Origin: Sashavirus 536P12
Sequence record: OZ035768.1
Length of the DNA: 55,927 bases
Strand: one strand, 5' to 3'
Below the pieces are notes generated by a model that saw only the letters and a program-made list of their open reading frames with translations, was not told where the DNA came from and ran no database searches. Positions 43,397-55,927 of this stretch are shown in pieces. Made by a program: the position numbers and the translations under genes. Position 1 is the first letter of the stretch; every line of letters starts with the position of its first letter.

Positions 43397-44166
43397 CAGA
43401 ATGCCCCACCCATTTGTTTAACAGACTCAGCCTGACCGACAATATTTTCAGCATCAGCAGGGGCAGCGTTAATACGTTCAATCAGTTCGATGATAGATTT
43501 CAGTTTTACTGGGTCGTCAATCTGCATCACGTTCTGAGTTTCATACAGTCCCATGATTCGCTGACTTAATGGCGCAGCACGGTCACCCGTAATTTGTCCA
43601 AACATCTGCATCAGTGCTGACTGAAGAACCTGTGTGTTATAAACTTTAGCCGGATCCGTGGTTACATGTTGCTCGATTGGTGCAGCCGGTGCTGCTGGTA
43701 CAACTGGAGCTACCGGAGCTACCGGAGCGGCAGGAACCGCTGGAGCAGGATCAACAGGTGCTACATAACCCGGTGCAAGTTCTGCAGGTCCGGTATAACG
43801 CCCTGCTTCAACTGCTTCAGCGATAAGTTCACGTTTAACACCGTCAACAAACGCTTCATCCAGTTTTTTCTTTTGACGCCACAGACCATCACCTTTGTTC
43901 AGGGATTTACTGTCAGTGTGGATACGCGGATCATGACGCAAACCCCATTTGTCGAACTCTTCAGTGCTGGTTTCATTATCGTCAACATCTTCAGTTGGTG
44001 CAGATACAACAGGCAATGATTCAGCAACGACAGTCACAGTTTCTTTAGTGATACCATCACCCTGAGCAGTCATGAGTGGTGCAGCACCAGTCGCAATAGC
44101 ATTTGCCAGATTGTTGATCGCAGTTTCCAGACCCGGAGCAGTTACAAGTAATTTAACTTCGAACAT
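43396..44166 (-). CDS. hypothetical protein with Pro/Ala-rich linker
   Basis: 256 aa; first gene of the minus-strand replication operon; PAPAVPAAPVAPVAPVVPAAPAAP linker. Confidence 0.5.
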   Translation of the reverse strand: MFEVKLLVTAPGLETAINNLANAIATGAAPLMTAQGDGITKETVTVVAESLPVVSAPTEDVDDNETSTEEFDKWGLRHDPRIHTDSKSLNKGDGLWRQKKKLDEAFVDGVKRELIAEAVEAGRYTGPAELAPGYVAPVDPAPAVPAAPVAPVAPVVPAAPAAPIEQHVTTDPAKVYNTQVLQSALMQMFGQITGDRAAPLSQRIMGLYETQNVMQIDDPVKLKSIIELIERINAAPADAENIVGQAESVKQMGGAF

Positions 44167-44192
44167 TACGTTTTCCTCTTGTTGTTTGGTTG

Positions 44193-44240
44193 TCGCTAAC
44201 TTTAAAAGGTGTTGTGTAATCTGTCAAGAATTATTTTACA
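44193..44240 (-). promoter_or_regulatory. conserved promoter element (P11)
   Basis: GTCAAGAATTATTTTACA at 44223-44240; minus-strand -35 TTGACA, -10 TAAAGT. Confidence 0.6.
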
Positions 44241-44255
44241 CTCGCCTTTCGTTGA

Positions 44256-44303
44256 TGCAGATGTTAGAGGAATGAGTTGCAATACGTCAAGAACTATTTT
44301 AAA
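44256..44303 (-). promoter_or_regulatory. conserved promoter element (P12, tandem with P11)
   Basis: GTCAAGAACTATTTTAAA at 44286-44303; minus-strand -35 TTGACG. Confidence 0.55.
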
Positions 44304-44336
44304 CTTTTTTCACGATTCGATATTACAGGGTAGAAA

Positions 44337-45998
44337 ATGAAAGCTCGTTATTATCAGACTGAAGCTATCAATAACGTATGTCAGGCATGGTCAAGCGGTG
44401 CTGACGACGTGATTCTTGTGCTTCCCACGGGGGCAGGAAAAACGTTCTGTATGTCTGAACTGGTAAAAACAAGAGACGGTGTAAAAGTCATTCAGGCGCA
44501 CCGTAAGGAACTGGTTAGCCAAATCGCAATGGCTGTTGCTCGTCAGGGGTTAGCACACAGATTTATAGCGCAAAAAGATACTGTTAAGTTTGCAACTAAT
44601 CAGCAGATGAAAACGCTTGGTTACAGTACCTATTCCCCCGGCGCTGACATCGTTATTACCAGTTCACAAACGTTAAGAACAAAACAGTACGAACGGTGGT
44701 ACAACGATGTGTCTCTTGTGTTCAGCGACGAAGCGCATCACCTGGTGCGTGGCACACAGTGGGGAGACTGCCGGGAAAAATTCCCTAACGCTAAAGGTCT
44801 GGGTGTTACAGCTACACCGATCCGTGCTGACGGTAAAGGCTTGGGTCGTCATGCGTCAGGTTACGCAGATCAGATGATCATTGGTCCGTCAATGCGTGAG
44901 TTAATCAGTCAACAACACTTGGCTGATTATCGTCTGATTATGGCTGAAACAGACCTGGAATTAACTGCAGAAATGATTTCCCATACTACGGGTGATTACA
45001 AACCCTCTGCGTTAAAAAAAGCGATGGAAGATTCAAACATCGTTGGTGATACCGTCAGTACGTGGAAAACATATGCAGATGGTTTACTCACTGTTGTGTT
45101 TACGTGTGATGTGGATTCTGCTGAAGCACTTGCAAAAGAATTTCGCGATGCTGGCATTCCTGCAGAGGCGATCAGCTCACGAAACAGCAATCAGGAACGA
45201 GCGGATATTCTGGAACGTTTTGAACGACGTAAAACACTCGTGCTATGTAACAACGATTTATTCGGTGAAGGGTATGATTGCCCGGCGATGGAATGTGCTG
45301 TAATGGACCGTCCAACAGAATCTTACTCTTTGTTTGTACAACAGATGGGTCGTCCGTTGCGTTTCAAACCGGGTAAAAAAGCACTGATTATTGATAAAGT
45401 AGGTAATGTTCGTCGATTTCTGGCCCGTGGTTTTCCACTTCCTGATCAGCACTACAACTGGTCTTTAGATGACCGTGACCGTCGTTCATCTAACAGCAGC
45501 GGGAACAGTAACACAACATGCACAAACAAGGGTGATCCTGATAATGGTATTCCACCGTGTCTAAAGCCTTATCCGTCTGGTCTGCCATGCTGCCCATATT
45601 GTGGTCATATTCCTGAAAAAGCCGAACGCTCAGGCCCGGATCGTGTAGAAGGTAATTTACGTGAACTGACACCTGAAGAACTGGAAGAATTACGCCGGGC
45701 AGTTGTGATAATCGACCGTGACCCTGTTGCGGTAAAAGAACAAATGTTGAACGCTGGTGCACCCCCTGTTGCAGCTTACAGTGCAATGAAAAACATTCAG
45801 GCAATGAATGATGCACAGCGTAAGTTACGTAGCATGATTACCACATGGGCGGGTATTCAGCGTGATAAAGGTATACCCGTTGATGACGCTTACAAGATGT
45901 TTTACAGGGTGTTTGGTGTTGATGTACTTAGCGCTCAGGGGTTACGTACTCGTGAAGCTAATGAACTTGCCGCAAGGGTTGCAAGTTCATTAATCTGA
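44337..45998 (+). CDS. SF2 DEAD/DEAH-box DNA helicase
   Basis: 553 aa; Walker A LPTGAGKT, motif II FSDEAHH, C-terminal Cys-rich CPYCGH. Confidence 0.7.
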   Translation: MKARYYQTEAINNVCQAWSSGADDVILVLPTGAGKTFCMSELVKTRDGVKVIQAHRKELVSQIAMAVARQGLAHRFIAQKDTVKFATNQQMKTLGYSTYSPGADIVITSSQTLRTKQYERWYNDVSLVFSDEAHHLVRGTQWGDCREKFPNAKGLGVTATPIRADGKGLGRHASGYADQMIIGPSMRELISQQHLADYRLIMAETDLELTAEMISHTTGDYKPSALKKAMEDSNIVGDTVSTWKTYADGLLTVVFTCDVDSAEALAKEFRDAGIPAEAISSRNSNQERADILERFERRKTLVLCNNDLFGEGYDCPAMECAVMDRPTESYSLFVQQMGRPLRFKPGKKALIIDKVGNVRRFLARGFPLPDQHYNWSLDDRDRRSSNSSGNSNTTCTNKGDPDNGIPPCLKPYPSGLPCCPYCGHIPEKAERSGPDRVEGNLRELTPEELEELRRAVVIIDRDPVAVKEQMLNAGAPPVAAYSAMKNIQAMNDAQRKLRSMITTWAGIQRDKGIPVDDAYKMFYRVFGVDVLSAQGLRTREANELAARVASSLI

Positions 45999-46038
45999 TG
46001 GTAATCTGCATAGAAATATTTAAACGTAAGGAACTGTA

Positions 46039-46545
46039 ATGCGTGATTTGATGGTTGACATTGAAACGTGTGGTACTAAACCGGGTTGTGTAGTGCTGTC
46101 AATTGGCGCTGTTTACTTTGACCGTCAGGGTAACATTGGTGAAACGTTTTACGCATCAATGGGTTTTAATGCGCTCGCTTATGGTCACACAGACCCTGAC
46201 ACTATGAAGTGGTGGTCGCAGCAGTCAGAACAAGCACAAAAAGATGCTTTTGGTGGTACTGCCGATCCTGTTCAGGTTGCTAAAGATTTTGCCAAATTCA
46301 TCTGGCACGATGCTAAACCGTGGGGCAATGGTTCCACATTCGATATCACTATTCTGGAAGCATGGTTTAATGCGGTTGGTGTTCGTTGCCCGTGGAAGTT
46401 CTGGAACGTCCGTGATGTTCGTACCGCTGTTGATTTGCTGGGTATTAACCCGAAAGAATTTACCCGTGACGGTACTTACCACAATGCGTTAGACGACTGT
46501 TTACACCAGATTAAATATCTTACTAGCGGGACTAAAACATTATGA
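46039..46545 (+). CDS. DEDDh 3'-5' exonuclease (DnaQ-like)
   Basis: 168 aa; Exo I DIETCG, C-terminal H..LDDC motif. Confidence 0.65.
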   Translation: MRDLMVDIETCGTKPGCVVLSIGAVYFDRQGNIGETFYASMGFNALAYGHTDPDTMKWWSQQSEQAQKDAFGGTADPVQVAKDFAKFIWHDAKPWGNGSTFDITILEAWFNAVGVRCPWKFWNVRDVRTAVDLLGINPKEFTRDGTYHNALDDCLHQIKYLTSGTKTL

Positions 46546-47033
46546 CAACGCTTGAACAATGGGCGATTCGTCACGGTATTAGTCAGATGGCGTTGTACGA
46601 GTTATACGCTCTTTATCAGCCTGATGGAACACCACACGAAGACGGTGTAAGTGAAAGCGCTACCAGTAAAGAGTGTGAACTGATTGCGGCACGTGCAGGG
46701 CAACGTATCTGGCGTAATAACTCAGGTGCTCTGAAAAACAAAAAAGGAATGATGGTTCGTTATGGTCTTGGTAACACCAGTGCGAAAATCAACGCTGTTA
46801 TGAAGTCAAGCGACTACATCGGCATTAAAACCAAAATCGTTACACCAGACATGGTAGGTTCGAAAGTGGGTGTCTTTATTGCTGCCGAAATGAAACGCCC
46901 TGACTGGCACATGATCCCCAGTGATAAACGTGCACAAGCACAAGCCACTTTCGGTGCGATTGTTGAAAACGCAGGTGGTGAATTTCGTTTCATCACCCAT
47001 CCTTCACAATTTGAAAAATGGATTAAACAATGA
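46542..47033 (+). CDS. VRR-NUC domain nuclease candidate
   Basis: 163 aa; WRNNSGA...DYIGIK...AAEMKR pattern consistent with a PD-(D/E)xK VRR-NUC core. Confidence 0.5.
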   Translation: MTTLEQWAIRHGISQMALYELYALYQPDGTPHEDGVSESATSKECELIAARAGQRIWRNNSGALKNKKGMMVRYGLGNTSAKINAVMKSSDYIGIKTKIVTPDMVGSKVGVFIAAEMKRPDWHMIPSDKRAQAQATFGAIVENAGGEFRFITHPSQFEKWIKQ

Positions 47034-47305
47034 ATAAAAAATCTTTAATCGCAACAATTGTAAGTCCTGAATACAAACAAAAACGTGAATCAATAACGTC
47101 TGAAATTGTTTCTGAATTTGATGACGTTAAAAAAACAAACCAGCGCGTATCACGTCTACAAAAACTGATTGATAACCACGGTATTGAAGCTGTTGCTAAA
47201 CGTCTGAACGTTACTGAAATTCATGTTAAACGTAATCTGCTTACCGGGCGATCTGCTATCAACCTGGTCAAACTGATGGCTGCTGAACGTCAGTTCGGAG
47301 CGTAA
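47030..47305 (+). CDS. small HTH-like protein
   Basis: 91 aa; IEAVAKRLNVTEIHVKRNL resembles a helix-turn-helix. Confidence 0.4.
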   Translation: MNKKSLIATIVSPEYKQKRESITSEIVSEFDDVKKTNQRVSRLQKLIDNHGIEAVAKRLNVTEIHVKRNLLTGRSAINLVKLMAAERQFGA

Positions 47306-47308
47306 ATT

Positions 47309-49663
47309 ATGAAAGGGTTACTGAACCGTAAACAGTGGGTCATGTGGCGACTTGAGACAGTCGCCGATCGTCCAAAACCAACGAAAGTACCATACAGCCC
47401 GGTACACGGTTATAAAGCCAGTACCACTAACCCTAACGACTGGTCTGACTATCACACCGCGTTAGGTATGGCGCAAATGTACGGTATGTCTGGTGTTGGT
47501 TTTGTATTCACAGAAAATGACCCTTATTTCTTTATCGATATTGATAACTGTCTGGTAGATCAGGCAACAGCTACGTGGTCACCACTGGCGCATGAATTCG
47601 TAAACCGTTTTCCAAATGCTTACACTGAAGTCAGTCAGTCAGGAACAGGTTTGCATATCATCTGTGCTTATACCAGCATACCGGAAGGTTTTAACAGTCT
47701 GAACGACCAGAAAACCGGGCTGGAAATGTACTGGCGTGATCGTTTCGTCGCGATGACGCTCACGGGTAATGGTGATGTTGATATTGATTATACCCAGGGC
47801 ATTCATGATTCTATTGCCCGGTATGGTCGTATCCGTTCAGACCGTTCCGCACGCTGGACAACAGCACCTTGTGATGACTGGTCAGGTCCGGCAGACGATG
47901 ATGAACTGATTAAAATGGCGTTAAATTCGTCCAGTGCTGCTTCAGTATTTGGCAATAAAGCGTCATTTGCAGATCTGTGGAATGCAAACGTTGAACGTCT
48001 GTCTGTGTCATATCCTAGCGACCAGGGAAAAGACTACAATGCATCTGCCGCTGATGCTGCCCTGTGCTCACACCTTGCGTTCTGGACCGGGAAAGATTGC
48101 GAACGTATTGAACGATTGTTTAACCGTTCCGGGCTGGTTCGTGGTAAATGGACAGATCGTCAGGATTACCGTGAAAACACAATTCTGGGCGCTGTGGAAC
48201 GTTGTGATACGGTTTATCGTAGTCAACCGACGCTGACACCAGAACTGATGAAAGCAGTCACACCAGCGCCTACCATCGTTCCTAACGGTGGAACACCTGC
48301 GTACATGAGTGTGAAACCCGGTGAAGGTGCATATGGTTCAAACCATACTGTTAATGCATCCACTTTCGTTAATAACTATTATCCGAACAACACATTGATT
48401 TTCGTCCAGCAACAGCCGTACCGGTTCAACGGTCGCGTGTGGGAACGTGTGAGTGAAGATGAACTGAAACATCAGATATCTATGGCAATGCTCGCCAGCG
48501 AACCAAAAGCTGACGTAATTAACGGTACGTACAAGGTTTTGTCGTATTTATTCACACGCGCTGATCGTGAGCTTGGAACATGGCCAGGTGTTGATGTGTC
48601 ACACTACATTGTATGTCAGAACGGGATACTGGATGTACACACGGGTAAATGTGATGCACATAACCCGGATTTCTTTACGACCAGTATTTTACCGTATAGC
48701 TACGATCCGTTTGCCCGTGCGCCAGCATTTGAACAGTTTTTAAATACAACTCTGGAAGGTGATCAGGAACGTATTGCACTGTTGCAGGAATGGCTGGGTT
48801 ACATGCTTGTCAACTCATATGACTATCAGAAAGCGATGCTGTTGATTGGTGCACCACGTTCCGGTAAAGGTACGATTGGTCGCATCATTCAGGCACTGGT
48901 AGGTGATGAAGCGTATGCAGGGATCACACTAGAGGGTTTAGCTAGTGATGCGGTACTTGAAACTGTGTTGGATAAATCTGTGCTGTTTATTGGTGATGCT
49001 CACAGTGTGTCCGGGCCTGATCGCAACCGAATTCTGGACCGTTTCAAATCTATTACAGGTTGTGATGCGATTCCGGTTAATCGTAAATATAAAGGTGCAT
49101 GGAACGGTCGTTTACCGGGACGTATGACACTGGCTGCTAACAACATTCCGGCATTTGCTGATGATTCAGGTGCAATGGCTAACCGTTTGCTGATCCTGCC
49201 ATTCAACATTTCGTTCCTGGGTCGTGAAGATACCACTCTGGAAGCACGACTGATGAAAGAACTACCGGGGATCTGTAACTGGGCGATTGAAGGTTTACAA
49301 CGGTTACGTGCTAACGGACGATTTTCTGAACCAAAAGCAAGTCTGGAAGAACGTCAGGAAATTATGGATCAACAATCACCACTTAGAAGTTTTATCAGAG
49401 ATTGTTGCGAATTGGTATCTGATGGTGAGGTGCACACTGAAGAACTCTATGGTCGTTATCGTCTCTGGAAAACACAGGAAGGTGGTCCAGCAATGACTAA
49501 AACTGCATTTAGTCGGGCATTTAAATCCACCCTTCGTGGTAAAGTGAAAAAAGACGTCGTTAATATAAATAACGTTCGACTAAACGGTTTCAGGGGTATT
49601 CGTCTTCTCCCTTTTCAGTCAACAGCTAATGTAGTGCCTTTCCCACCTGCGAGTAACGGTTAG
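47309..49663 (+). CDS. primase-helicase (prim-pol N-terminal domain plus D5/SF3-type P-loop NTPase)
   Basis: 784 aa; prim-pol motifs FIDIDN and GLHIICAY; Walker A GAPRSGKGT. Confidence 0.75.
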   Translation: MKGLLNRKQWVMWRLETVADRPKPTKVPYSPVHGYKASTTNPNDWSDYHTALGMAQMYGMSGVGFVFTENDPYFFIDIDNCLVDQATATWSPLAHEFVNRFPNAYTEVSQSGTGLHIICAYTSIPEGFNSLNDQKTGLEMYWRDRFVAMTLTGNGDVDIDYTQGIHDSIARYGRIRSDRSARWTTAPCDDWSGPADDDELIKMALNSSSAASVFGNKASFADLWNANVERLSVSYPSDQGKDYNASAADAALCSHLAFWTGKDCERIERLFNRSGLVRGKWTDRQDYRENTILGAVERCDTVYRSQPTLTPELMKAVTPAPTIVPNGGTPAYMSVKPGEGAYGSNHTVNASTFVNNYYPNNTLIFVQQQPYRFNGRVWERVSEDELKHQISMAMLASEPKADVINGTYKVLSYLFTRADRELGTWPGVDVSHYIVCQNGILDVHTGKCDAHNPDFFTTSILPYSYDPFARAPAFEQFLNTTLEGDQERIALLQEWLGYMLVNSYDYQKAMLLIGAPRSGKGTIGRIIQALVGDEAYAGITLEGLASDAVLETVLDKSVLFIGDAHSVSGPDRNRILDRFKSITGCDAIPVNRKYKGAWNGRLPGRMTLAANNIPAFADDSGAMANRLLILPFNISFLGREDTTLEARLMKELPGICNWAIEGLQRLRANGRFSEPKASLEERQEIMDQQSPLRSFIRDCCELVSDGEVHTEELYGRYRLWKTQEGGPAMTKTAFSRAFKSTLRGKVKKDVVNINNVRLNGFRGIRLLPFQSTANVVPFPPASNG

Positions 49664-49681
49664 TCATTGCACAAGGATGTG

Positions 49682-49723
49682 TAAAATAATTCTTGACGAA
49701 TTACAGAGGTGTGCGCTATAGTC
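49682..49723 (+). promoter_or_regulatory. conserved promoter element (P13, + orientation)
   Basis: TAAAATAATTCTTGACGAATTACA; -35 TTGACG 49693-49698, 18-nt spacer, -10 TATAGT 49717-49722. Confidence 0.7.
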
Positions 49724-49753
49724 TGTACATCAAGTGAACAAGGAGTGATTGTT

Positions 49754-49966
49754 ATGAAACCACACTACCGATTAATGAGACTTTCACAGTGTCCTAATGG
49801 AACACGGTTTTATTTTTATCGTCTGAAGCAACTATTACCTTTCACGTTAATTGCTAACAGCTTCAAGAAATACGAAAGTATTTATCACGAGGGTCACGAT
49901 TTTAATATTACCGCGAGAAAATACAGAACGTCTATTCATAAACTTGTGTGGGCTAAGGTGAACTAA
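49754..49966 (+). CDS. hypothetical early protein
   Basis: ORF 49709 begins with GTG; likely start ATG 49754 after AAGGAG. Confidence 0.45.
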   Translation: MKPHYRLMRLSQCPNGTRFYFYRLKQLLPFTLIANSFKKYESIYHEGHDFNITARKYRTSIHKLVWAKVN

Positions 49967-49968
49967 TA

Positions 49969-50208
49969 ATGGGTGGTCGTGGATCATGTCGTCGAACTCG
50001 TTCATTACGCTGCAGTAAGTGTTATGAGCGAAACCTACGTGATTATTTATTAGGGTTTGGTACACGCAACTGGGAAAACGTTGAAGTTACTGGTGAAAAT
50101 GGAAACACTTACACCTGCCGTTGTGAATCCTGTGGTCACACTTATCAAACAACATCAGCGGCTGCACGTCGCGAATGGAAGTGGAAGAAAAACCATGTTA
50201 ATAACTAG
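49969..50208 (+). CDS. small Cys-rich zinc-finger-like protein
   Basis: 79 aa; CSKCYER...CRCESCGH. Confidence 0.45.
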   Translation: MGGRGSCRRTRSLRCSKCYERNLRDYLLGFGTRNWENVEVTGENGNTYTCRCESCGHTYQTTSAAARREWKWKKNHVNN

Positions 50209-50452
50209 TATTTTCATACTTGTATTTTGGATAATCATCGTTATACGTATAATTATTTGTGCTGTCATACAAAGAAAAATGATTGATTTTTATTATTCTG
50301 ATAAAAGTGGTTGGGACACACATCAACAGAGTATGTTTGATGCTTACCCACAATTAGATACTTTCAAAATGATTTTTAAATTCTGGGTATGGCCTATGTC
50401 AAAATTCTATCCTGAATACAGGAAAGGTAAAAACCATGAAAAACATATTTGA
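50195..50452 (+). CDS. small membrane protein
   Basis: ORF 50057; likely start ATG 50195; hydrophobic LITSIFILVFWIIIVIRIIICAVI. Confidence 0.35.
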   Translation: MLITSIFILVFWIIIVIRIIICAVIQRKMIDFYYSDKSGWDTHQQSMFDAYPQLDTFKMIFKFWVWPMSKFYPEYRKGKNHEKHI

Positions 50453-50633
50453 CCGTTTAATTACTGTTATCGTATTTCTTGTATCCGTAACGCTCGCGTC
50501 TTGTATTGTCGGACTAATGACCCGTGGTAATCATGCGGAAACACCGTGGTGGTTTCTGGCAGGTATTGGATTATTAGCGGCTGCGGCATCAATTGATGCT
50601 TGCATGTGGGGAGTGAAAAACGATCATGACTGA
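50436..50633 (+). CDS. small membrane protein (2 TM)
   Basis: 65 aa; LITVIVFLVSVTLASCIVGLM and WWFLAGIGLLAAAASI. Confidence 0.45.
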   Translation: MKNIFDRLITVIVFLVSVTLASCIVGLMTRGNHAETPWWFLAGIGLLAAAASIDACMWGVKNDHD

Positions 50634-50841
50634 ATTCGGTGCTGTAATCAAAAAAGAAGACCGTTATGCACATATTGATACCCGGATTACCTGGGTTGAT
50701 ATCAGTGAAGCTACTCTGTTCAGTTCAACTTACATGGCTGGTGTTGCACTTAAATCACTTCGCGATCAGGGTTTCAATTGCAGAAAAGTAACAATTGCTC
50801 CTGTTAAAATCACGCGGATCGTAGAGGAAACAGAAGGATGA
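50626..50841 (+). CDS. hypothetical protein
   Basis: 71-aa ORF. Confidence 0.4.
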   Translation: MTEFGAVIKKEDRYAHIDTRITWVDISEATLFSSTYMAGVALKSLRDQGFNCRKVTIAPVKITRIVEETEG

Positions 50842-50865
50842 ATATTGCTGGTAGGAGTATTGATT

Positions 50866-51063
50866 ATGCAAGTAGGTAATTGTTATTTATATCCTAAAAC
50901 AGATCTGTTTGAAAAATGTTGGGTGGTAATAACCTATTCAAATCCGTGTCAGGGAGTTATCATGTGGGATGATGGTAAATGTCAGACTTCAATGATAAAT
51001 GATCAGGACATGCGAGGCTGTCAATTAGTTGGATGTAATATGAAGATGAGATCAACACAATGA
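50866..51063 (+). CDS. hypothetical Cys-containing protein
   Basis: ORF 50845 begins with TTG; likely start ATG 50866 after AGGAG. Confidence 0.35.
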   Translation: MQVGNCYLYPKTDLFEKCWVVITYSNPCQGVIMWDDGKCQTSMINDQDMRGCQLVGCNMKMRSTQ

Positions 51064-51455
51064 TAATCGTCGTCACAGGTGGTCGTGACTTCAACGACAG
51101 AGTAGCAGTATTTTCCGCGTTAGGACTACTTCACAAACAATTCCCCATTACCGAACTAATTGAAGGTGGTGCGTCAGGTGTTGATAACCTGTGTAAGCAA
51201 TGGGCGCAGTTACACAGTATTCCTGTGCGTAGTTGCCCGGCAGCGTGGGACGATCTGACTGTACCTGGTGCGGTTGTAAAACAGGGCAAGCACGGGCCTT
51301 ATAACGCTGTTGCAGGTCATCAACGTAATCAGGCGATGTTAGAGGGTGAGCCACGCCCTACATATGGTGTTGTGTTCCCCGGTGGGCGTGGTACTGCTGA
51401 TATGCATCGTCGCATGTTGAAAGCTGGTTTAACTGTGTGGGTTCCATATCCTTAA
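51060..51455 (+). CDS. DUF2493 / SLOG-family protein (predicted nucleotide-binding)
   Basis: 131 aa; MIIVVTGGRDF...GGASGVDNL...GHQRNQAM...VVFPGGRGT pattern; stop overlaps promoter P14. Confidence 0.5.
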   Translation: MIIVVTGGRDFNDRVAVFSALGLLHKQFPITELIEGGASGVDNLCKQWAQLHSIPVRSCPAAWDDLTVPGAVVKQGKHGPYNAVAGHQRNQAMLEGEPRPTYGVVFPGGRGTADMHRRMLKAGLTVWVPYP

Positions 51456-51493
51456 AATAATTCTTGACAGATTACCAACCCTCCCCGATAATT
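51452..51493 (+). promoter_or_regulatory. conserved promoter element (P14, + orientation)
   Basis: TTAAAATAATTCTTGACAGATTACCA; -35 TTGACA 51464-51469, 17-nt spacer, -10 GATAAT 51487-51492. Confidence 0.7.
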
Positions 51494-51518
51494 AGCCTCA
51501 GTTAACACACATGAGGCT
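51494..51518. promoter_or_regulatory. palindromic element AGCCTCA-N11-TGAGGCT at the transcription start region (operator or leader hairpin candidate)
   Basis: inverted repeat directly visible; near reverse complement of the element at 13803-13824; GAGG in its 3' arm is the SD for the ATG at 51527. Confidence 0.45.
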
Positions 51519-51526
51519 AAACACAA

Positions 51527-51622
51527 ATGGCTAACATTAACTCCCTTCGCAAGCTATCTGATACCGATAAAACCAATGTAAAACGTGGTAATGCGTATCA
51601 TCAAGATTCGTCCAGGGCATAA
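51527..51622 (+). CDS. small ORF (31 aa) downstream of P14
   Basis: ATG 51527 nine nt after GAGG; stop TAA at 51620-51622. Confidence 0.25.
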   Translation: MANINSLRKLSDTDKTNVKRGNAYHQDSSRA

Positions 51623-51894
51623 CCCACGCGGTGAATGGTCTGTAACCCGTTCGGAAAGTGGTAAAGTCCTGGTTGAACTTACCACTGAACAGTTCGAAGC
51701 GTTAAAAGCACTGAAGGAGCACCAGTTATGAAAACTATGTCAGACAACTTAACATCAATTTACGGTACGTTGACCTGTCGTTCTAAATTTAAACCGTTGA
51801 CAAAAGAAGAAGAACGTCAGTGTAAGTTTAATAACAGTTTTCCCAGCGTTAATGAAAATCGTTGGATTGCCAAACTGACCGGGAGTAAAAAGAA

Positions 51895-52119
51895 ATGACT
51901 ATCCGACTGATGAATCCAACCGTTGCCCGTAATATTAAACCGGGCGACAAGATTGAAGTATTTAATGAATGGTACTGGGTACGCTATATCAATTACCACG
52001 GGGCAACACTTACCCTTCGCTTACAACCGGAAGATGAACCGCTATCACCATTTTGCGAAAACGACCGCGTTGTGGTGACAGTACCAGAAGATTTAACGAT
52101 TGATGTCGAGGTGCGTTAA
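51895..52119 (+). CDS. hypothetical early protein
   Basis: 74-aa ORF. Confidence 0.45.
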   Translation: MTIRLMNPTVARNIKPGDKIEVFNEWYWVRYINYHGATLTLRLQPEDEPLSPFCENDRVVVTVPEDLTIDVEVR

Positions 52120-52443
52120 ATGACTGTATATGAAATGGAAGGTTTTCTTCGTGGTAAATGTGTTCCGGGCGACCTGAAAGTTAACGAAACAAACGCTGAA
52201 TATCTGGTACGTAAATTTGGTGAACTTGAAAATAAATGTGCGGCGCTGGTTACGGAGAATGTTCGACTTAAGTCAGGTATAGCTGGCCTGATACATCTCG
52301 GTATTCGATACGCAGATGTTGATGTAATGAAAATTGCTGGAGACGCACAGCTTTCCACTCCATGTACTGATGACATCATAAACAGCATTACCCAAAAAGA
52401 AACCAGTGATAAAAGTGCACAAGCACAAAATGTTCCCTCGTAA
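52120..52443 (+). CDS. hypothetical early protein
   Basis: 107-aa ORF. Confidence 0.45.
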   Translation: MTVYEMEGFLRGKCVPGDLKVNETNAEYLVRKFGELENKCAALVTENVRLKSGIAGLIHLGIRYADVDVMKIAGDAQLSTPCTDDIINSITQKETSDKSAQAQNVPS

Positions 52444-52672
52444 TGGTTTGAAGTGGTCCGCACGAGATCTGACGTTATTAAAAATTAATGCAGGAAAGAT
52501 CAGTGCGGACGAAATAGCGTATTACCTTCGCCGGGACGTTGAAGCGGTGCACATTAAAGCGTCACGTCTCGGTATATCACTGGTAACCAATAAATGTAAA
52601 CGTGGTCATACGCGAGTTTACCAAAAAGGTAGATGGCGCTGTCCTGAGTGTAGAAAATTAAAAGGGTATTAA
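52430..52672 (+). CDS. small protein with C-terminal zinc-ribbon-like motif
   Basis: ORF 52406; likely start ATG 52430; CKRGHTRVYQKGRWRCPEC. Confidence 0.35.
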   Translation: MFPRNGLKWSARDLTLLKINAGKISADEIAYYLRRDVEAVHIKASRLGISLVTNKCKRGHTRVYQKGRWRCPECRKLKGY

Positions 52673-52674
52673 AG

Positions 52675-52908
52675 ATGAAAATTAAAAACATGGCTACAAG
52701 TGGTCTGTCAGGCCGTATCTTTTACGGTACGATGGAAACAAAAGACGGTGGTCAGTCTGGTAAATGGTTAGCAGGAAAGCAAGACGTTACTGATATGGCG
52801 ATCCGCGCCGTTGCTGAACATTGTCATCTGACAGGGAACGAATATTCATTTACGCTTAACGACGGTCGTGTGATTACACTGGCAGTAACAGAGGTACAAC
52901 CATCATGA
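52675..52908 (+). CDS. hypothetical early protein
   Basis: 77-aa ORF. Confidence 0.4.
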   Translation: MKIKNMATSGLSGRIFYGTMETKDGGQSGKWLAGKQDVTDMAIRAVAEHCHLTGNEYSFTLNDGRVITLAVTEVQPS

Positions 52909-53474
52909 CACCTGAACAATTCGCAACAGCAGCACACGGTGATCAACTTCGTAAGTACACCAACGACCCATATGTGAACCACTGCCGGAACGTTGCTGAA
53001 CTGGTTAAACGCTATGGTGGTACGCCGGATATGGTTACCGCTGCCTGGCTGCATGACGTCGTTGAAGATACACCCGTGACCGTGGGTGATGTGTGTTCGC
53101 AGTTCGGTGAGACTGTGGCACGTTATGTTGATCAGCTTACTGATGTGAGTCGTCCACACCACGGCAACCGTGTTAAGCGTAAAGCACGGGACATCGACCA
53201 TTTATCACGGGCTGAACCTGTAGTGAAAACTATAAAACTGTGTGATCTGCTAGATAACACCTCTTCAATTGTCCGACACGATCCGAAGTTTGCTGTAACA
53301 TACCTGGCTGAAAAACAACTCATGCTTGCTCACCTGTCAGACACCAGTAATCAGGAGTTATACGCGCTTGTTGAGCGTGAATTGTTTAAAGCCAAATACA
53401 AACTAACGAACGTCCAGTTGACCGCGTTTGACAAACACTACGACGCACTGGTTAAAGCGATGGGGGAGTTGTGA
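52905..53474 (+). CDS. HD-domain hydrolase, SpoT/Mesh1-like small alarmone hydrolase candidate
   Basis: 189 aa; AAHGDQLRKYTNDPYVNHCRNVA and AAWLHDVVEDT match the HD signature of (p)ppGpp hydrolase domains. Confidence 0.6.
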   Translation: MTPEQFATAAHGDQLRKYTNDPYVNHCRNVAELVKRYGGTPDMVTAAWLHDVVEDTPVTVGDVCSQFGETVARYVDQLTDVSRPHHGNRVKRKARDIDHLSRAEPVVKTIKLCDLLDNTSSIVRHDPKFAVTYLAEKQLMLAHLSDTSNQELYALVERELFKAKYKLTNVQLTAFDKHYDALVKAMGEL

Positions 53475-53783
53475 TTATGAAAGAAATAGAACAACTGGTT
53501 AAACGTTTACGTGCTGCTGATCATCAACTTACTGTTGAAAATAACTGGATAGTGGTTAATCCACCATGTTCTTTATCTGATACGCTTTTAATTCAGAAAT
53601 TGAATAAAGGTGAAAAACTGGCTAAGTATATTAAGGAAAACCCGTAATGAAACTAAAACTTCCAGGATACTGGTTTTCCGTAAGCTGGAACAATTACAGT
53701 AATTGGGGTTATTTCAAACTATGGTATGACGGCCCGTACCGCGCATTCTGGATCGGTCGTCTTTGTTTCGAATGGTGGTGGCG

Positions 53784-54005
53784 ATGATTGCAGATCACTT
53801 ACTGTGTAAACTACGTGCGGACCTGATTAATAAAAAGTTTTGTCGTGATATAAACAAACCACTTGTATTTGTAAAAATGCTCAACGTCTATAGAGCAGGT
53901 CGTGGTTTTAAGGTCATGTTCAGATACGGTGATGACGGTCATGTCGTATATTGTGGTTACACCAATTTTTTGAAACGTTACCCGGAGGAACTAACACATG
54001 AATAA
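53784..54005 (+). CDS. hypothetical early protein
   Basis: ORF 53763; likely start ATG 53784 after GGTGGTGG. Confidence 0.35.
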   Translation: MIADHLLCKLRADLINKKFCRDINKPLVFVKMLNVYRAGRGFKVMFRYGDDGHVVYCGYTNFLKRYPEELTHE

Positions 54006-54207
54006 AGCATCGCCTGTAGAAATACGTAAGTGTCTTGAAATGGCAAACAGTCTTGCACATGCCGGGATTAGATTTGTCCCTGTACCAGTAACCAGTGATG
54101 ATGAATTTAATTCGCTGGTTTCTCATTCGTACGGGATGCTAAACAAAATAGCAGACGATTGTGATACAACTAACCGCCAGTTCGAAAGCCTGGCTAATCA
54201 TAAATAA
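53998..54207 (+). CDS. hypothetical early protein
   Basis: 69-aa ORF; GGAA SD. Confidence 0.4.
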   Translation: MNKASPVEIRKCLEMANSLAHAGIRFVPVPVTSDDEFNSLVSHSYGMLNKIADDCDTTNRQFESLANHK

Positions 54208-54270
54208 CTACCCGTTCATACTAATCATCAGTGCGCTCTATGTGGCGCACGTTTTCTGGGAGATGTACCG

Positions 54271-54558
54271 ATGACCATAAGACGTGTTGTGTGTGCGGCA
54301 AATAAATATGAACTTAACGATGGTTCAACTAAAATTTTCACGGGTATCCGACACTATTGTCCCGTTATGCGTCAGAATATGGAGTTCTGGAAATTATCCA
54401 TCAAACGTTCTACAGAAATACAAGGCTTTGTAGATCAGTATGGTGTTTTTATGGACCGTTTTGAAGCACTTCAGGTTGCAAAAGATTCCGGGCAACTGAA
54501 TATCGCCAGACCAAAAACATCACCTGAAGATCGGTTATTTAGCAAGGACTTATACTAA
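54271..54558 (+). CDS. hypothetical protein
   Basis: 95-aa ORF followed by a terminator. Confidence 0.45.
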   Translation: MTIRRVVCAANKYELNDGSTKIFTGIRHYCPVMRQNMEFWKLSIKRSTEIQGFVDQYGVFMDRFEALQVAKDSGQLNIARPKTSPEDRLFSKDLY

Positions 54559-54584
54559 CAAAAAAGCGGGGCTAACTACCCCGC
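54559..54584. terminator. bidirectional terminator hairpin
   Basis: AAAAAA + GCGGGGCTAACTACCCCGC between convergent genes. Confidence 0.6.
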
Positions 54585-54589
54585 TATCT

Positions 54590-55345
54590 TTATTGACCCA
54601 TCATATCTTTATACATCATCAAAACAACATCATCCGGCATATTGTCTACATCACAATGTGGGTTGTGTGATAACGCATACAGTCTGATTTTCTCCTTCAA
54701 ATCGCTGACATCGACTACAGGTGGTTCCACTCGTGTTACAGGTGGTTCCACTCGTGTTACAGGTGGTTCCACTCGTGTTACAGGTGGTTCACAAACCATC
54801 ACGTTAAACGGTGTACCGGTGCCTTCGTATTTTTCAAGCAAATCGACCATTACGTTTACACATTCCGGGATCCAGCCCCGGCGCAAACCATTCTGAATCC
54901 AACTGTCAGTAATTGTGTGTTCGTTTAAATTTCTGCGTAGCACATATCTTGCACATTCAAAATTACCGCACATCGCCTCAAACCGTGTCCACACGTCGTG
55001 ACCGTGAACAGCTTCCAGGATCTGTGAATCAACGTATCTGACACGTTGCCAGTATTTATTAGCAAAACGCCTGTGTGGTAATTTCTGACGCAGTTCGGTA
55101 ACCGGTATTGTGTGTTTAAGAACAATATTTTCGTCAGAATGTTGTACTGGCAAGGGTGACAGTGTGAAGTCAGTAATCTCTTCAAGAATAATACTGATCG
55201 TTTCATATTTAGGATGAAACCTACCGCTTAACCATTGGTTGTAACGACCAACAGTTACCTTAACACCCCGACGATTAAGGTATTCAACAGCGTTTTGTAC
55301 CCCGCCTTTTAAATCTATCAATTCGTCTAAAAGGTTCTTTTTCAT
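54590..55345 (-). CDS. HTH-like protein with C-terminal VEPPVTR tandem repeats (candidate regulator of adjacent operator-like repeats)
   Basis: ORF 54590..55381; likely start ATG 55345 with AAGGGTG SD; N-terminal LIDLKGGVQNAVEYLNRRGVKVTVGRYNQW resembles an HTH. Confidence 0.45.
   Translation of the reverse strand: MKKNLLDELIDLKGGVQNAVEYLNRRGVKVTVGRYNQWLSGRFHPKYETISIILEEITDFTLSPLPVQHSDENIVLKHTIPVTELRQKLPHRRFANKYWQRVRYVDSQILEAVHGHDVWTRFEAMCGNFECARYVLRRNLNEHTITDSWIQNGLRRGWIPECVNVMVDLLEKYEGTGTPFNVMVCEPPVTRVEPPVTRVEPPVTRVEPPVVDVSDLKEKIRLYALSHNPHCDVDNMPDDVVLMMYKDMMGQ
54718..54790. repeat. 21-bp tandem repeat x3.5 (caggtggttccactcgtgtta)
   Basis: perfect direct repeats inside the CDS, in frame. 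Confidence 0.9.
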
Positions 55346-55380
55346 TATCACACCCTTCTTGTTTGACCACGGGTAAATCA

Positions 55381-55927
55381 TAACGCGCGTTAGCAGCTAG
55401 TGCAAGACGTGCTTTATATGTTAGTGTGTTTACACCTAATGCATGTTGTGCATTAGCAGTTAGTGCAAGATGCACGTTGTGTATTAGCTGTTAGTGCACG
55501 TTGTGTATCTATGTTGGTACAGCTAATGCACGTTGTGAATTATATAATGCATGTTGTGCATTAAAGTTATACTTAACATAGATTTCGTCATGTTTACTTT
55601 TTAACCAACCCCTCTCTATCTTATTCTTTTTATTATCTTTTTATAGATAACATAGAAAACATAGATATAAAGAAGAAGTAGTATAGAAAGATAGAGATAG
55701 TGCATATAGTGTATTAGCTGTAAATAGAGCTAAAATAAAAGTCTGGGAGATACCTATTGTAATCTATGTTTTTATGCAAGTCTTTGAATTGATTGTGATT
55801 ATGGGCTACGTATTTATGTATGTAATCGAAAATTAGTGCATGTTGTGCACTAACTGTAAAATTAATACTAACGTTGTATTAGCTGTAAAACAGGGCGTGT
55901 GGACAACCCGTGGGTATCTGTGGGAAA
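55381..55927. repeat. iteron / operator-rich AT-rich region B (candidate origin, pac-proximal or regulatory region)
   Basis: multiple copies of TGCACGTTGTG / TATTAGCTG motifs; palindrome TTAGTGCA-N5-TGCACTAA (~55840-55860); 69-bp block 55578-55646 ~97% identical to 16382-16450; AT-rich core. Confidence 0.7.

Follow-up and report, generated by a model that had tools for sequence, protein, structure and literature searches.

A stand-alone PaSpo-like small alarmone hydrolase gene, accessory within its phage group, in a 9NA/Sasha-like virulent siphovirus of Escherichia coli

Small alarmone hydrolases (SAHs) encoded by phages can undo the work of toxic small alarmone synthetases (toxSASs). The SAH of Salmonella phage PVP-SE1 and the PaSpo enzyme of Salmonella phage SSU5 (PaSpo-SSU5) each neutralise CapRel, PhRel, PhRel2, FaRel and FaRel2, which make up all five toxSAS classes tested (PMC7229694). 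PaSpo-SSU5 removes the 3'-pyrophosphate from tRNA, and it is routinely used to detoxify CapRel-SJ46, FaRel2 and PhRel2 for expression. Related activities are found outside phages: the metazoan hydrolase MESH1 and the antitoxin ATfaRel restore aminoacylation of FaRel2-pyrophosphorylated tRNA, and MESH1 hydrolyses both ppGpp and ppApp and has also been reported as an NADPH phosphatase. One of the toxins concerned, CapRel-SJ46, defends against phages: once triggered by the major capsid protein, it pyrophosphorylates tRNA (PMC9712102). Jimmy et al. proposed that hydrolases let incoming phages bypass alarmone-mediated defence (PMC7229694). Here we describe a gene of this kind, at positions 52905-53474 of Sashavirus 536P12 (sequence record OZ035768.1); the whole stretch of DNA that we analysed, 55,927 nt long, is called the window below. 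As a whole, the evidence is best explained, with a probability of roughly 0.8, by an active stand-alone SAH that would reverse the products of RelA/SpoT homologue (RSH) synthetases in the infected cell.

The window is essentially the whole genome of a 9NA/Sasha-like virulent E. coli siphovirus. Over most of its length it shares ~96% nucleotide identity with vB_EcoS_AVIO78A, vB_EcoS_PJ16, KarinMuster_Bas82 (Bas82), PDP46 and Sashavirus BDX09P1, and it is ~84-91% identical to the Salmonella phages Sasha, Sergei, Solent, SP069 and 9NA. The BASEL paper assigns Bas82 to Nonanavirus and is silent on the SAH gene (PMC11990801). In the window, the gene and the sequence just before it are as follows:

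52905..53474, + strand: SAH coding sequence including the stop codon, an ATG-to-TGA open reading frame (ORF) for a 189-aa, single-domain SAH
52890-52894, + strand: Shine-Dalgarno-like AGAGG, 10 nt before the SAH ATG, read from the sequence

The ATG overlaps the stop codon of an upstream 77-aa DUF7446 ORF (52675..52908, with ATGA at 52905-52908) and the next ORF begins 2 nt past the SAH stop codon, so this is a normally packed phage gene, set as tightly as is usual in a phage operon. An antisense ORF at 52824..53201 (125 aa) is probably a by-product of the coding strand. The G+C content of the gene, 48.4%, lies at the 93rd percentile of 570-bp windows, and that of the genome overall is 43.5%. 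Its product is 98.9% identical to Bas82_0088 of Escherichia phage KarinMuster, with identities of 98-99% across the five E. coli phages that carry it. Both HD-motif strings that a sequence-only reading had quoted for ORF 52905-53474 were located in the 189-aa product, HGDQLRKYTNDPYVNH at residues 11-26 and AAWLHDVVEDT at residues 46-56.

By profile and sequence comparison, the protein is a member of the RSH hydrolase family. Pfam HD_4 (PF13328), the RelA/SpoT-type HD domain, matches residues 5-127 (4.2e-15; 56.3 bits against a cutoff of 27.2) and scores much higher than the generic Pfam HD model, the only other Pfam match, which fits weakly (1e-4). In NCBIfam TIGR00691 (spoT_relA) the match falls in the N-terminal, hydrolase part (1.1e-20), and PHROGs assigns the protein to phrog_990 (1.1e-38). 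Together with 1886 homologues at E<=1e-5, the HD_4, phrog_990 and TIGR00691 scores place the homology far beyond chance. In a single-sequence search of the PDB, Listeria Lmo0812 (4e-15) and human and fly MESH1 (1e-13 to 3e-11) gave the strongest matches, MESH1 and Lmo0812 scoring 55-60 bits, followed by the hydrolase domains of Rel, RelA and SpoT (~1e-10) and by bacterial SAHs (1e-5). A profile of 50 homologues matched 22 distinct PDB sequences at E<=1e-5, every one of them a MESH1, SAH, Rel, SpoT or Aph1. No dNTPase, nucleotidase or phosphodiesterase was found among the PDB matches (E<=1 by sequence; E<=1e-5 by profile) or among the top 50 fold matches described below. The 189 residues hold the hydrolase domain only, with no synthetase, TGS or ACT domain, which is what defines the SAH class.

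These results bear directly on the sequence-only reading, which had called the product a SpoT/Mesh1-like HD hydrolase and SAH candidate, had suggested a profile search, and had held that homology to another HD subfamily, such as dNTPases, would speak against the idea. The profile search places the protein in the RelA/SpoT hydrolase family, with 22 of 22 profile matches in the PDB being RSH hydrolases, and HD_4, TIGR00691, the PDB matches, motifs HD1-HD6 and the predicted fold all support the name. Public records are less exact: near-identical genes are variously called 'metal-dependent phosphohydrolase', 'polyphosphate hydrolase' and 'RelA/SpoT family (p)ppGpp synthetase'. The synthetase name is wrong for PDP46 (PQ783785.1, 54434-55000), whose 189-aa, 98.4% identical protein has no possible synthetase domain. 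Further phage records name matching genes 'GTP pyrophosphokinase' or 'bifunctional (p)ppGpp synthetase/hydrolase'; there the matches cover the hydrolase part only.

An AlphaFold2 model built from a 50-sequence alignment predicts one compact domain of eleven helices, with a mean predicted local distance difference test score of 97.2 and a predicted template modelling (TM) score of 0.92. Searched against the PDB with Foldseek, this model found human MESH1 as its top match (TM 0.77/0.81, root-mean-square deviation 2.0 A, 170 columns) and aligned end to end with the 179-aa protein. The next ranks were taken by the Pseudomonas aeruginosa SAH (PaSAH), Drosophila MESH1, the RelH enzymes of C. glutamicum and L. 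levettii, Lmo0812 and Rel/SpoT hydrolase domains; all 50 of the top 50 matches are RSH hydrolases. As modelled, the protein has the all-alpha fold with an active-site cavity that is seen in MESH1, SAHs and Rel, where ~9-10 helices are present. No PaSpo-family structure appears in the PDB, and the best sequence matches there, Lmo0812 and MESH1, are ~36% identical to the phage protein.

Mn2+-dependent RSH hydrolysis has been described in terms of six motifs (PMC9293644): HD1, an Arg that stacks on the base; HD2, a metal-binding His; HD3, a metal-binding His-Asp; HD4, a Glu-Asp pair for nucleophilic attack; HD5, a metal-binding Asp plus Arg/Lys; and HD6, an Asn that contacts the base. We mapped the corresponding residues by HMMER alignment to MESH1 and by MAFFT alignment, and took conservation from 50 homologues of 44-88% identity:

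52950..52982, + strand: HD1 Arg16 (codon 52950-52952), the base-stacking Arg, and HD2 His26 (codon 52980-52982), the first Mn2+ ligand
53052..53069, + strand: HD3 His50-Asp51 (codons 53052-53057), metal ligands, and HD4 Glu54-Asp55 (codons 53064-53069), the catalytic acid pair
53244..53258, + strand: HD5 Asp114 (codon 53244-53246), followed by Leu115, and HD6 Asn118 (codon 53256-53258)

R16, H26, H50, D51, E54, D114 and N118 are invariant in the 50 homologues, and D55 is at least 90% conserved. R16 aligns with R24 of MESH1, H26 with H35, H50-D51 with H61-D62, D114 with D122 and N118 with N126, and D55 corresponds to the position altered in 5vxa, the crystal form of inactive MESH1 D66K. H26, H50, D51 and D114 are the predicted Mn2+ ligands. 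The spacing agrees as well: HD1 and HD2 lie 10 residues apart, as in C. glutamicum RelH (R24/H34); N118 sits 4 residues past D114, as in RelH (D122/N126) and MESH1; and S121 matches the Ser/Thr three residues past HD6 that holds the HD1 arginine (PMC9293644). The second position of HD5 departs from the Asp plus Arg/Lys pattern, being L115, in contrast to the Lys or Arg of MESH1, RelH and Rel. This 'D:hydrophobic' variant of HD5 has been described in many SAHs (PMC9293644), and PaSpo-SSU5 and PVP-SE1 gp220, both functional in cells, share it. Because these functional enzymes carry the same variant, L115 does not exclude activity, and judged by the alignment it does not argue for inactivity. We regard the protein as very probably an active RSH-type 3'-pyrophosphohydrolase.

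The closest characterised relative is SSU5_099 (YP_006906731), the PaSpo SAH of Salmonella phage SSU5, at 52% identity over residues 6-146 (136 bits, 2e-45); PVP-SE1 gp220, of the PbcSpo subfamily, reaches only 30 bits (36% over 73 residues). In a neighbour-joining tree, which carries no support values, SSU5 PaSpo forms the sister branch of the 50 clustered homologues and does not fall among them, and MESH1, Lmo0812 and the PVP-SE1 enzyme fall outside. These comparisons suggest that the protein belongs with or next to the PaSpo subfamily (Atkinson 2011; Jimmy 2020), and we call it PaSpo-like. The statement in the sequence-only reading that phage SAHs had been reported before was correct: the PVP-SE1 and SSU5 SAHs neutralise toxSASs (PMC7229694), and it is the SSU5 enzyme to which this protein is 52% identical.

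Like PaSpo-SSU5, the protein is a stand-alone, phage-encoded single HD_4 domain with no synthetase gene adjacent. The two share the family-specific motifs RKYT..PY.NH, LHDVVEDT, RP..GNR, KL.DLLDNTSSIV and DP.F...YLAEK as well as the Asp-Leu form of HD5, but their C-terminal ~45 residues are unrelated, their lengths differ (189 aa here, 213 aa in SSU5), and SSU5 is a phage of ~103 kb whereas the phage described here is a ~56-kb virulent 9NA-like siphovirus. PVP-SE1 gp220 and ATfaRel of Cellulomonas marina are also single-domain RSH hydrolases, borne by a phage or a toxin-antitoxin module, and neutralise toxSASs; gp220 differs in having Asp at the HD1 position, which is Arg here, and ATfaRel lies in an operon with its toxin, whereas the gene described here is an orphan.

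Comparison with the structurally characterised enzymes shows a shared core with more distant sequences. Human and Drosophila MESH1 (3nr1, 5vxa, 9chy, 3nqw) have the same metal ligands and catalytic Glu-Asp (TM 0.77-0.81), but they are metazoan proteins of ~28-36% identity in which a Lys follows the HD5 Asp and the HD1 loop is longer (11 residues from R24 to H35, against 10 here). PaSAH (6yvc, 6z3n), the RelH enzymes of C. glutamicum (7qoc/7qod) and L. levettii (7qoe) and Lmo0812 (4yf1) share the fold and HD1-HD6, and the RelH enzymes also have the Ser at N+3 past HD6 that corresponds to S121. Similarity to such bacterial chromosomal SAHs is much weaker (single-sequence E of 1e-5 to 1e-15), their genes are housekeeping or orphan chromosomal genes, and PaSAH has Leu at HD1. 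Aph1 (7smg), which comes from a temperate Bacteroides phage, likewise is phage-associated and has the HD-domain RSH hydrolase fold, but its similarity is weak (E of 7e-3 by sequence and 7e-7 by profile, TM ~0.5) and it is paired with a synthetase toxin. The (p)ppApp-specific signature of Aph1 consists of an Asp at HD1 (D24), R119 and a compact 8-helix fold (PMC10083569). We checked the D24 position and the helix count, and Arg16 at HD1 together with the eleven predicted helices rules out an Aph1-type, (p)ppApp-specific enzyme.

The SAH gene lies in a block that differs between relatives:

51782..53941, + strand: accessory block of ~7 small genes, including the SAH gene, without counterpart in Salmonella phage Sasha (blastn against Sasha locus L007)

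Relative to Sasha, this block is a clean 2.2-kb insertion/deletion, the flanks of which join directly at L007 5006/5001. A tblastn search of the Sasha locus gave no match to the SAH, and the Sasha annotation likewise has no such gene there. Phage-wide, tblastn found SAH copies of at least 80% identity only in five E. coli phages and in Salmonella phages FSL SP-062 and SP069, with no high-identity copy in Sasha, Sergei, Solent or 9NA. Since high-identity copies are limited to some relatives and are missing from those four, the SAH gene is accessory within its own phage group. An origin from an E. coli prophage was considered and rejected, there being no DNA match in 5,426 complete E. coli genomes.

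Outside the 9NA group, the nearest homologues are proteins of ~167 aa with 50-60% identity. Six homologue contexts were inspected; four are phage or prophage and two are chromosomal orphans. The phage-related contexts comprise a Burkholderia prophage, in which the gene lies beside a lysozyme gene, and three contigs of metagenomic phages on which genes for terminase, DNA polymerase or nucleotide metabolism are present. No small alarmone synthetase gene stands beside the SAH homologue in any of the six. We also looked for a conserved partner gene and discarded the idea, as the ORFs flanking the gene here and its homologue in the Burkholderia prophage are unrelated. On one metagenomic phage contig (L009, 7469-9999), a 57% identical SAH homologue (P0022) directly follows a gene for a MazG-like PRA-PH pyrophosphohydrolase; after it come a 342-aa ORF, a weak Fic-domain gene, and then genes for thymidylate synthase, dCMP deaminase and DNA polymerase A. 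These genes may constitute a nucleotide-manipulation cluster. PaSpo-like homologues, compared at the protein level (42-56% identity), also occur on 370 plasmids, mostly non-mobilizable. The enterobacterial plasmids listed among them (from Klebsiella, Cronobacter, Enterobacter, Escherichia and Salmonella) are ~100-110 kb in size, as against 103 kb for SSU5, which suggests that they are phage-plasmids.

Within the window, the SAH gene is one of a series of small + strand ORFs that follow, downstream, on the replication module, whose genes encode DNA polymerase, a Gp2.5-like single-stranded DNA-binding protein, an exonuclease, a helicase and a primase (47309-49663). Two further features bracket a ~3.1-kb unit that contains it:

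51464..51492, + strand: near-consensus sigma-70 promoter-like site, TTGACA-17-GATAAT (11/12), the best-scoring site in a scan of 44000-55927
54565..54585, no strand assigned: bidirectional intrinsic-terminator-like hairpin, AGCGGGG...CCCCGCT, which ends the + strand block and a converging - strand gene

The promoter-like stretch is kept in phage Sasha at 89% nucleotide identity, and the Sasha record annotates a terminator at the place equivalent to the hairpin. Hairpins in the scan of 44000-55927 numbered 15 against 9.7 expected from shuffles, an excess that is not large. Two terminator-like hairpins inside the SAH gene itself (53071-53088 and 53363-53379) have poor T tails and were taken as chance matches. 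The sequence-only reading had placed the gene in the early region with other small unknown genes; the block of small genes is indeed there, while its early expression would follow only from the promoter-like site and from the position past the primase gene.

If the protein is an active stand-alone SAH, as we propose, its single RelA/SpoT-type HD domain, with Mn2+ held by H26, H50, D51 and D114 and with E54-D55, would cleave the 3'-pyrophosphate that RSH synthetases set on the ribose 3'-OH. Host RNA polymerase, starting from the promoter-like site at 51464, would probably transcribe the gene along with other small accessory genes, and the enzyme would accumulate ahead of late-gene expression. 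In the infected cell it would undo what toxSAS toxins such as CapRel produce, namely tRNAs pyrophosphorylated at the CCA end and (pp)pApp, as well as the (p)ppGpp of RelA/SpoT, and the outcome would be that translation and nucleotide metabolism are kept running for the phage. Both a Salmonella phage and E. coli prophages carry CapRel-SJ46 (PMC9712102), which means that hosts of the 9NA-like phage group do offer a relevant target. That countering toxSAS immunity is the main role for which the gene was selected falls, in our estimate, a little short of an even chance. We put forward more tentatively a specific form of this proposal, in which the SAH would be a true anti-defence enzyme of virulent 9NA-like coliphages: made before the capsid protein, it would remove what CapRel-type toxSASs produce once the capsid has triggered them, both the 3'-pyrophosphate on tRNA and any (pp)pApp. 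If this were true, SAH-carrying phages would resist CapRel-type abortive infection, and they would provide what is, by the literature searched, the first infection-level demonstration of a phage enzymatically reversing a toxSAS modification.

Several points weigh against this account. Leu115 takes the place of the HD5 Lys/Arg, although the functional SSU5 and PVP-SE1 enzymes have the same variant. The scan returned 12 promoter-like sites where 26.7 were expected from shuffles, and the promoter and terminator are consensus matches. Neutralisation of toxSASs by PaSpo was shown by plasmid co-expression, not infection, and the literature searched gave no phage SAH that defeats a toxSAS during infection, the role appearing there as hypotheses only.

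The same enzyme might also have been selected for host takeover. By degrading (p)ppGpp made by RelA/SpoT it would suppress the stringent response, and transcription of rRNA and tRNA, translation and DNA replication would continue for the phage in an infected cell that may be starving. We consider this possible though not probable as the principal selected role, and it is compatible with counter-defence. From the residues that line the predicted active site (Arg at HD1, Asn at HD6), (p)ppGpp degradation is equally compatible with the enzyme: Arg16 is as in the guanine-stacking (p)ppGpp hydrolases, and not the Asp of the (p)ppApp-specific Aph1, and N118 and S121 match the guanine-contacting N150 and T153 of Thermus thermophilus Rel and N148/T151 of RelSeq. 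The genomic setting can be read in the same way, as the SAH gene adjoins the replication module with its primase gene (47309-49663), and one metagenomic phage homologue directly follows a MazG-like gene near genes for thymidylate synthase and dCMP deaminase; the same role has been proposed in other phage genome papers (PMC12846349). Yet the SAH is dispensable within the group, given that Sasha has no such gene and that Sergei, Solent and 9NA gave no high-identity match, and such an accessory distribution is more in keeping with an arms-race gene than with a core takeover function. In addition, E. coli already has SpoT.

A substrate other than an alarmone is improbable. On this explanation the SAH fold would serve an NADPH or 3'-phosphoadenosine 5'-phosphosulfate (PAPS)-type phosphatase like metazoan MESH1, or act on a different signalling nucleotide with a 3'-phosphate. 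The structures matched best are indeed those of human MESH1 with NADPH (5vxa) and with PAPS (9chy), MESH1 has been reported as an NADPH phosphatase, and the change of Lys/Arg to Leu at HD5 makes the phosphate-binding environment differ from that of MESH1 and Rel. Identity to MESH1 is ~28-36%, however, against 52% to PaSpo-SSU5, which reverses toxSAS products in cells, and the SAHs that have been tested are as a rule promiscuous toward ppGpp, ppApp and pp-tRNA.

Still less probable is that the protein serves as a type IV antitoxin of a phage-borne toxSAS toxin-antitoxin or polymorphic-toxin module, guarding against a synthetase of the phage's own in the manner of ATfaRel or Aph1. Precedents exist, as ATfaRel (PbcSpo subfamily) is such an antitoxin and Aph1 adjoins the MuF-fused toxin Apk2 in a temperate phage. 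The neighbouring ORFs here encode a YspA/SLOG-domain protein (51060-51455), DUF2737 and DUF7446 proteins, a D5-like regulator fragment, a DUF1382 protein and proteins without assignment, and Pfam, PHROGs and PADLOC gave no synthetase or defence-system domain in ten of them. Bas82, whose complete genome is ~96-97% identical, likewise has no annotated alarmone synthetase; this negative result refers to these ten neighbours and to the Bas82 annotation, a whole-window ORF scan for a divergent synthetase fold not being part of the analysis. Nor does a synthetase stand beside any of the six homologues, and the flanking genes are not conserved relative to the Burkholderia prophage homologue. PADLOC gave no match for the SAH and nine neighbours, and the SAH was accordingly rejected as a defence or toxin-antitoxin component. 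We regard the antitoxin explanation as largely refuted already. Finally, membership of another HD subfamily (dNTP triphosphohydrolase, 5'-nucleotidase or cyclic-nucleotide phosphodiesterase), for which the weak generic Pfam HD match (1e-4) and the vague record names 'metal-dependent phosphohydrolase' and 'polyphosphate hydrolase' might be cited, is refuted by the profile matches and the predicted fold, with HD_4 far ahead of generic HD and no dNTPase or phosphodiesterase among the PDB sequence matches or the 50 best fold matches, and the conservation of the catalytic and metal-binding residues in the six RSH hydrolase motifs speaks against an inactive relic.

Other features of the window deserve mention. 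The gene at 51060-51455 (+ strand), 1.4 kb upstream of the SAH gene and just before the promoter-like site, encodes a 131-aa protein with a YspA/cpYpsA-related SLOG domain (PF10686, 1.7e-18; phrog_289, 'GTP-binding domain'), a predicted nucleotide-ligand-binding fold; Bas82 and Sasha have it too. At 51527-51735 lies the remnant of a ParB-like gene that Bas82 (Bas82_0082) and Sasha (gp77) have at this place. Its first part, 51527-51633, matches the beginning of the gene in Bas82 and the sequence from 51627 onward matches the end, which corresponds to an internal loss of ~540 bp, and Bas82_0081 is likewise absent from the window. The stretches 52262-52431, 52687-52886 and 54275-54555 do not align to Bas82, and the SAH gene and the DNA between these stretches are 96-97% identical; this pattern in the alignment suggests that small ORFs around a conserved SAH gene have been allelically replaced relative to Bas82. 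Two segments are shared with lambdoid phages, one at ~52118-52261, at the start of ORF 52120..52443 (phrog_614), and one at 53998-54207 (DUF1382), with 77-88% nucleotide identity to HK620 hkaH, HK106, HK629, UPF_BP1 and many Stx2a-converting phages. The nucleotide matches indicate that this group of virulent siphoviruses and the temperate lambdoids have exchanged small accessory genes in mosaic fashion.

Beyond the terminator-like hairpin, the - strand ORF 54590..55381 encodes a 263-aa product (phrog_25538) with no assigned function, and at 54716-54790 it contains a perfect 21-bp tandem repeat of 3.6 copies, which translates into a repeated PVTRVEP peptide. Since the tandem repeat region annotated in gp81, the Sasha orthologue, is longer, relatives differ in copy number. 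The intergenic sequence at 55440-55847, upstream of this - strand ORF and before the terminase small subunit region, carries six + strand copies of TGCA(C/T)GTTGTG within ~400 bp. The whole window has 7 matches to this 11-mer against 2.0 expected, and 7 was reached in 1 of 100 shuffles; the cluster may serve as an array of operators or iterons, or be involved in packaging. The window has no tRNA genes and no Rfam matches at gathering score.

Phage SAHs were known before, including the functionally tested PaSpo enzyme at 52% identity, and near-identical genes had already been deposited, so the gene described here is a further PaSpo-like member and not a new system. Such SAHs are recognised, little-studied candidate genes for counter-defence or host takeover, and this one adds a well-supported PaSpo-like member in a small group of virulent E. 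coli siphoviruses (9NA/Sasha-like). Its value lies in correcting vague or wrong annotations in public records and in the 98.9% identical gene of a genetically tractable BASEL phage, Bas82. The group also offers a natural experiment, with relatives that have the gene (Bas82, PJ16, AVIO78A, PDP46 and SP-062) and relatives that do not (Sasha and apparently Sergei, Solent and 9NA). These phages allow one to ask whether the SAH acts against CapRel-type immunity or modulates the stringent response.

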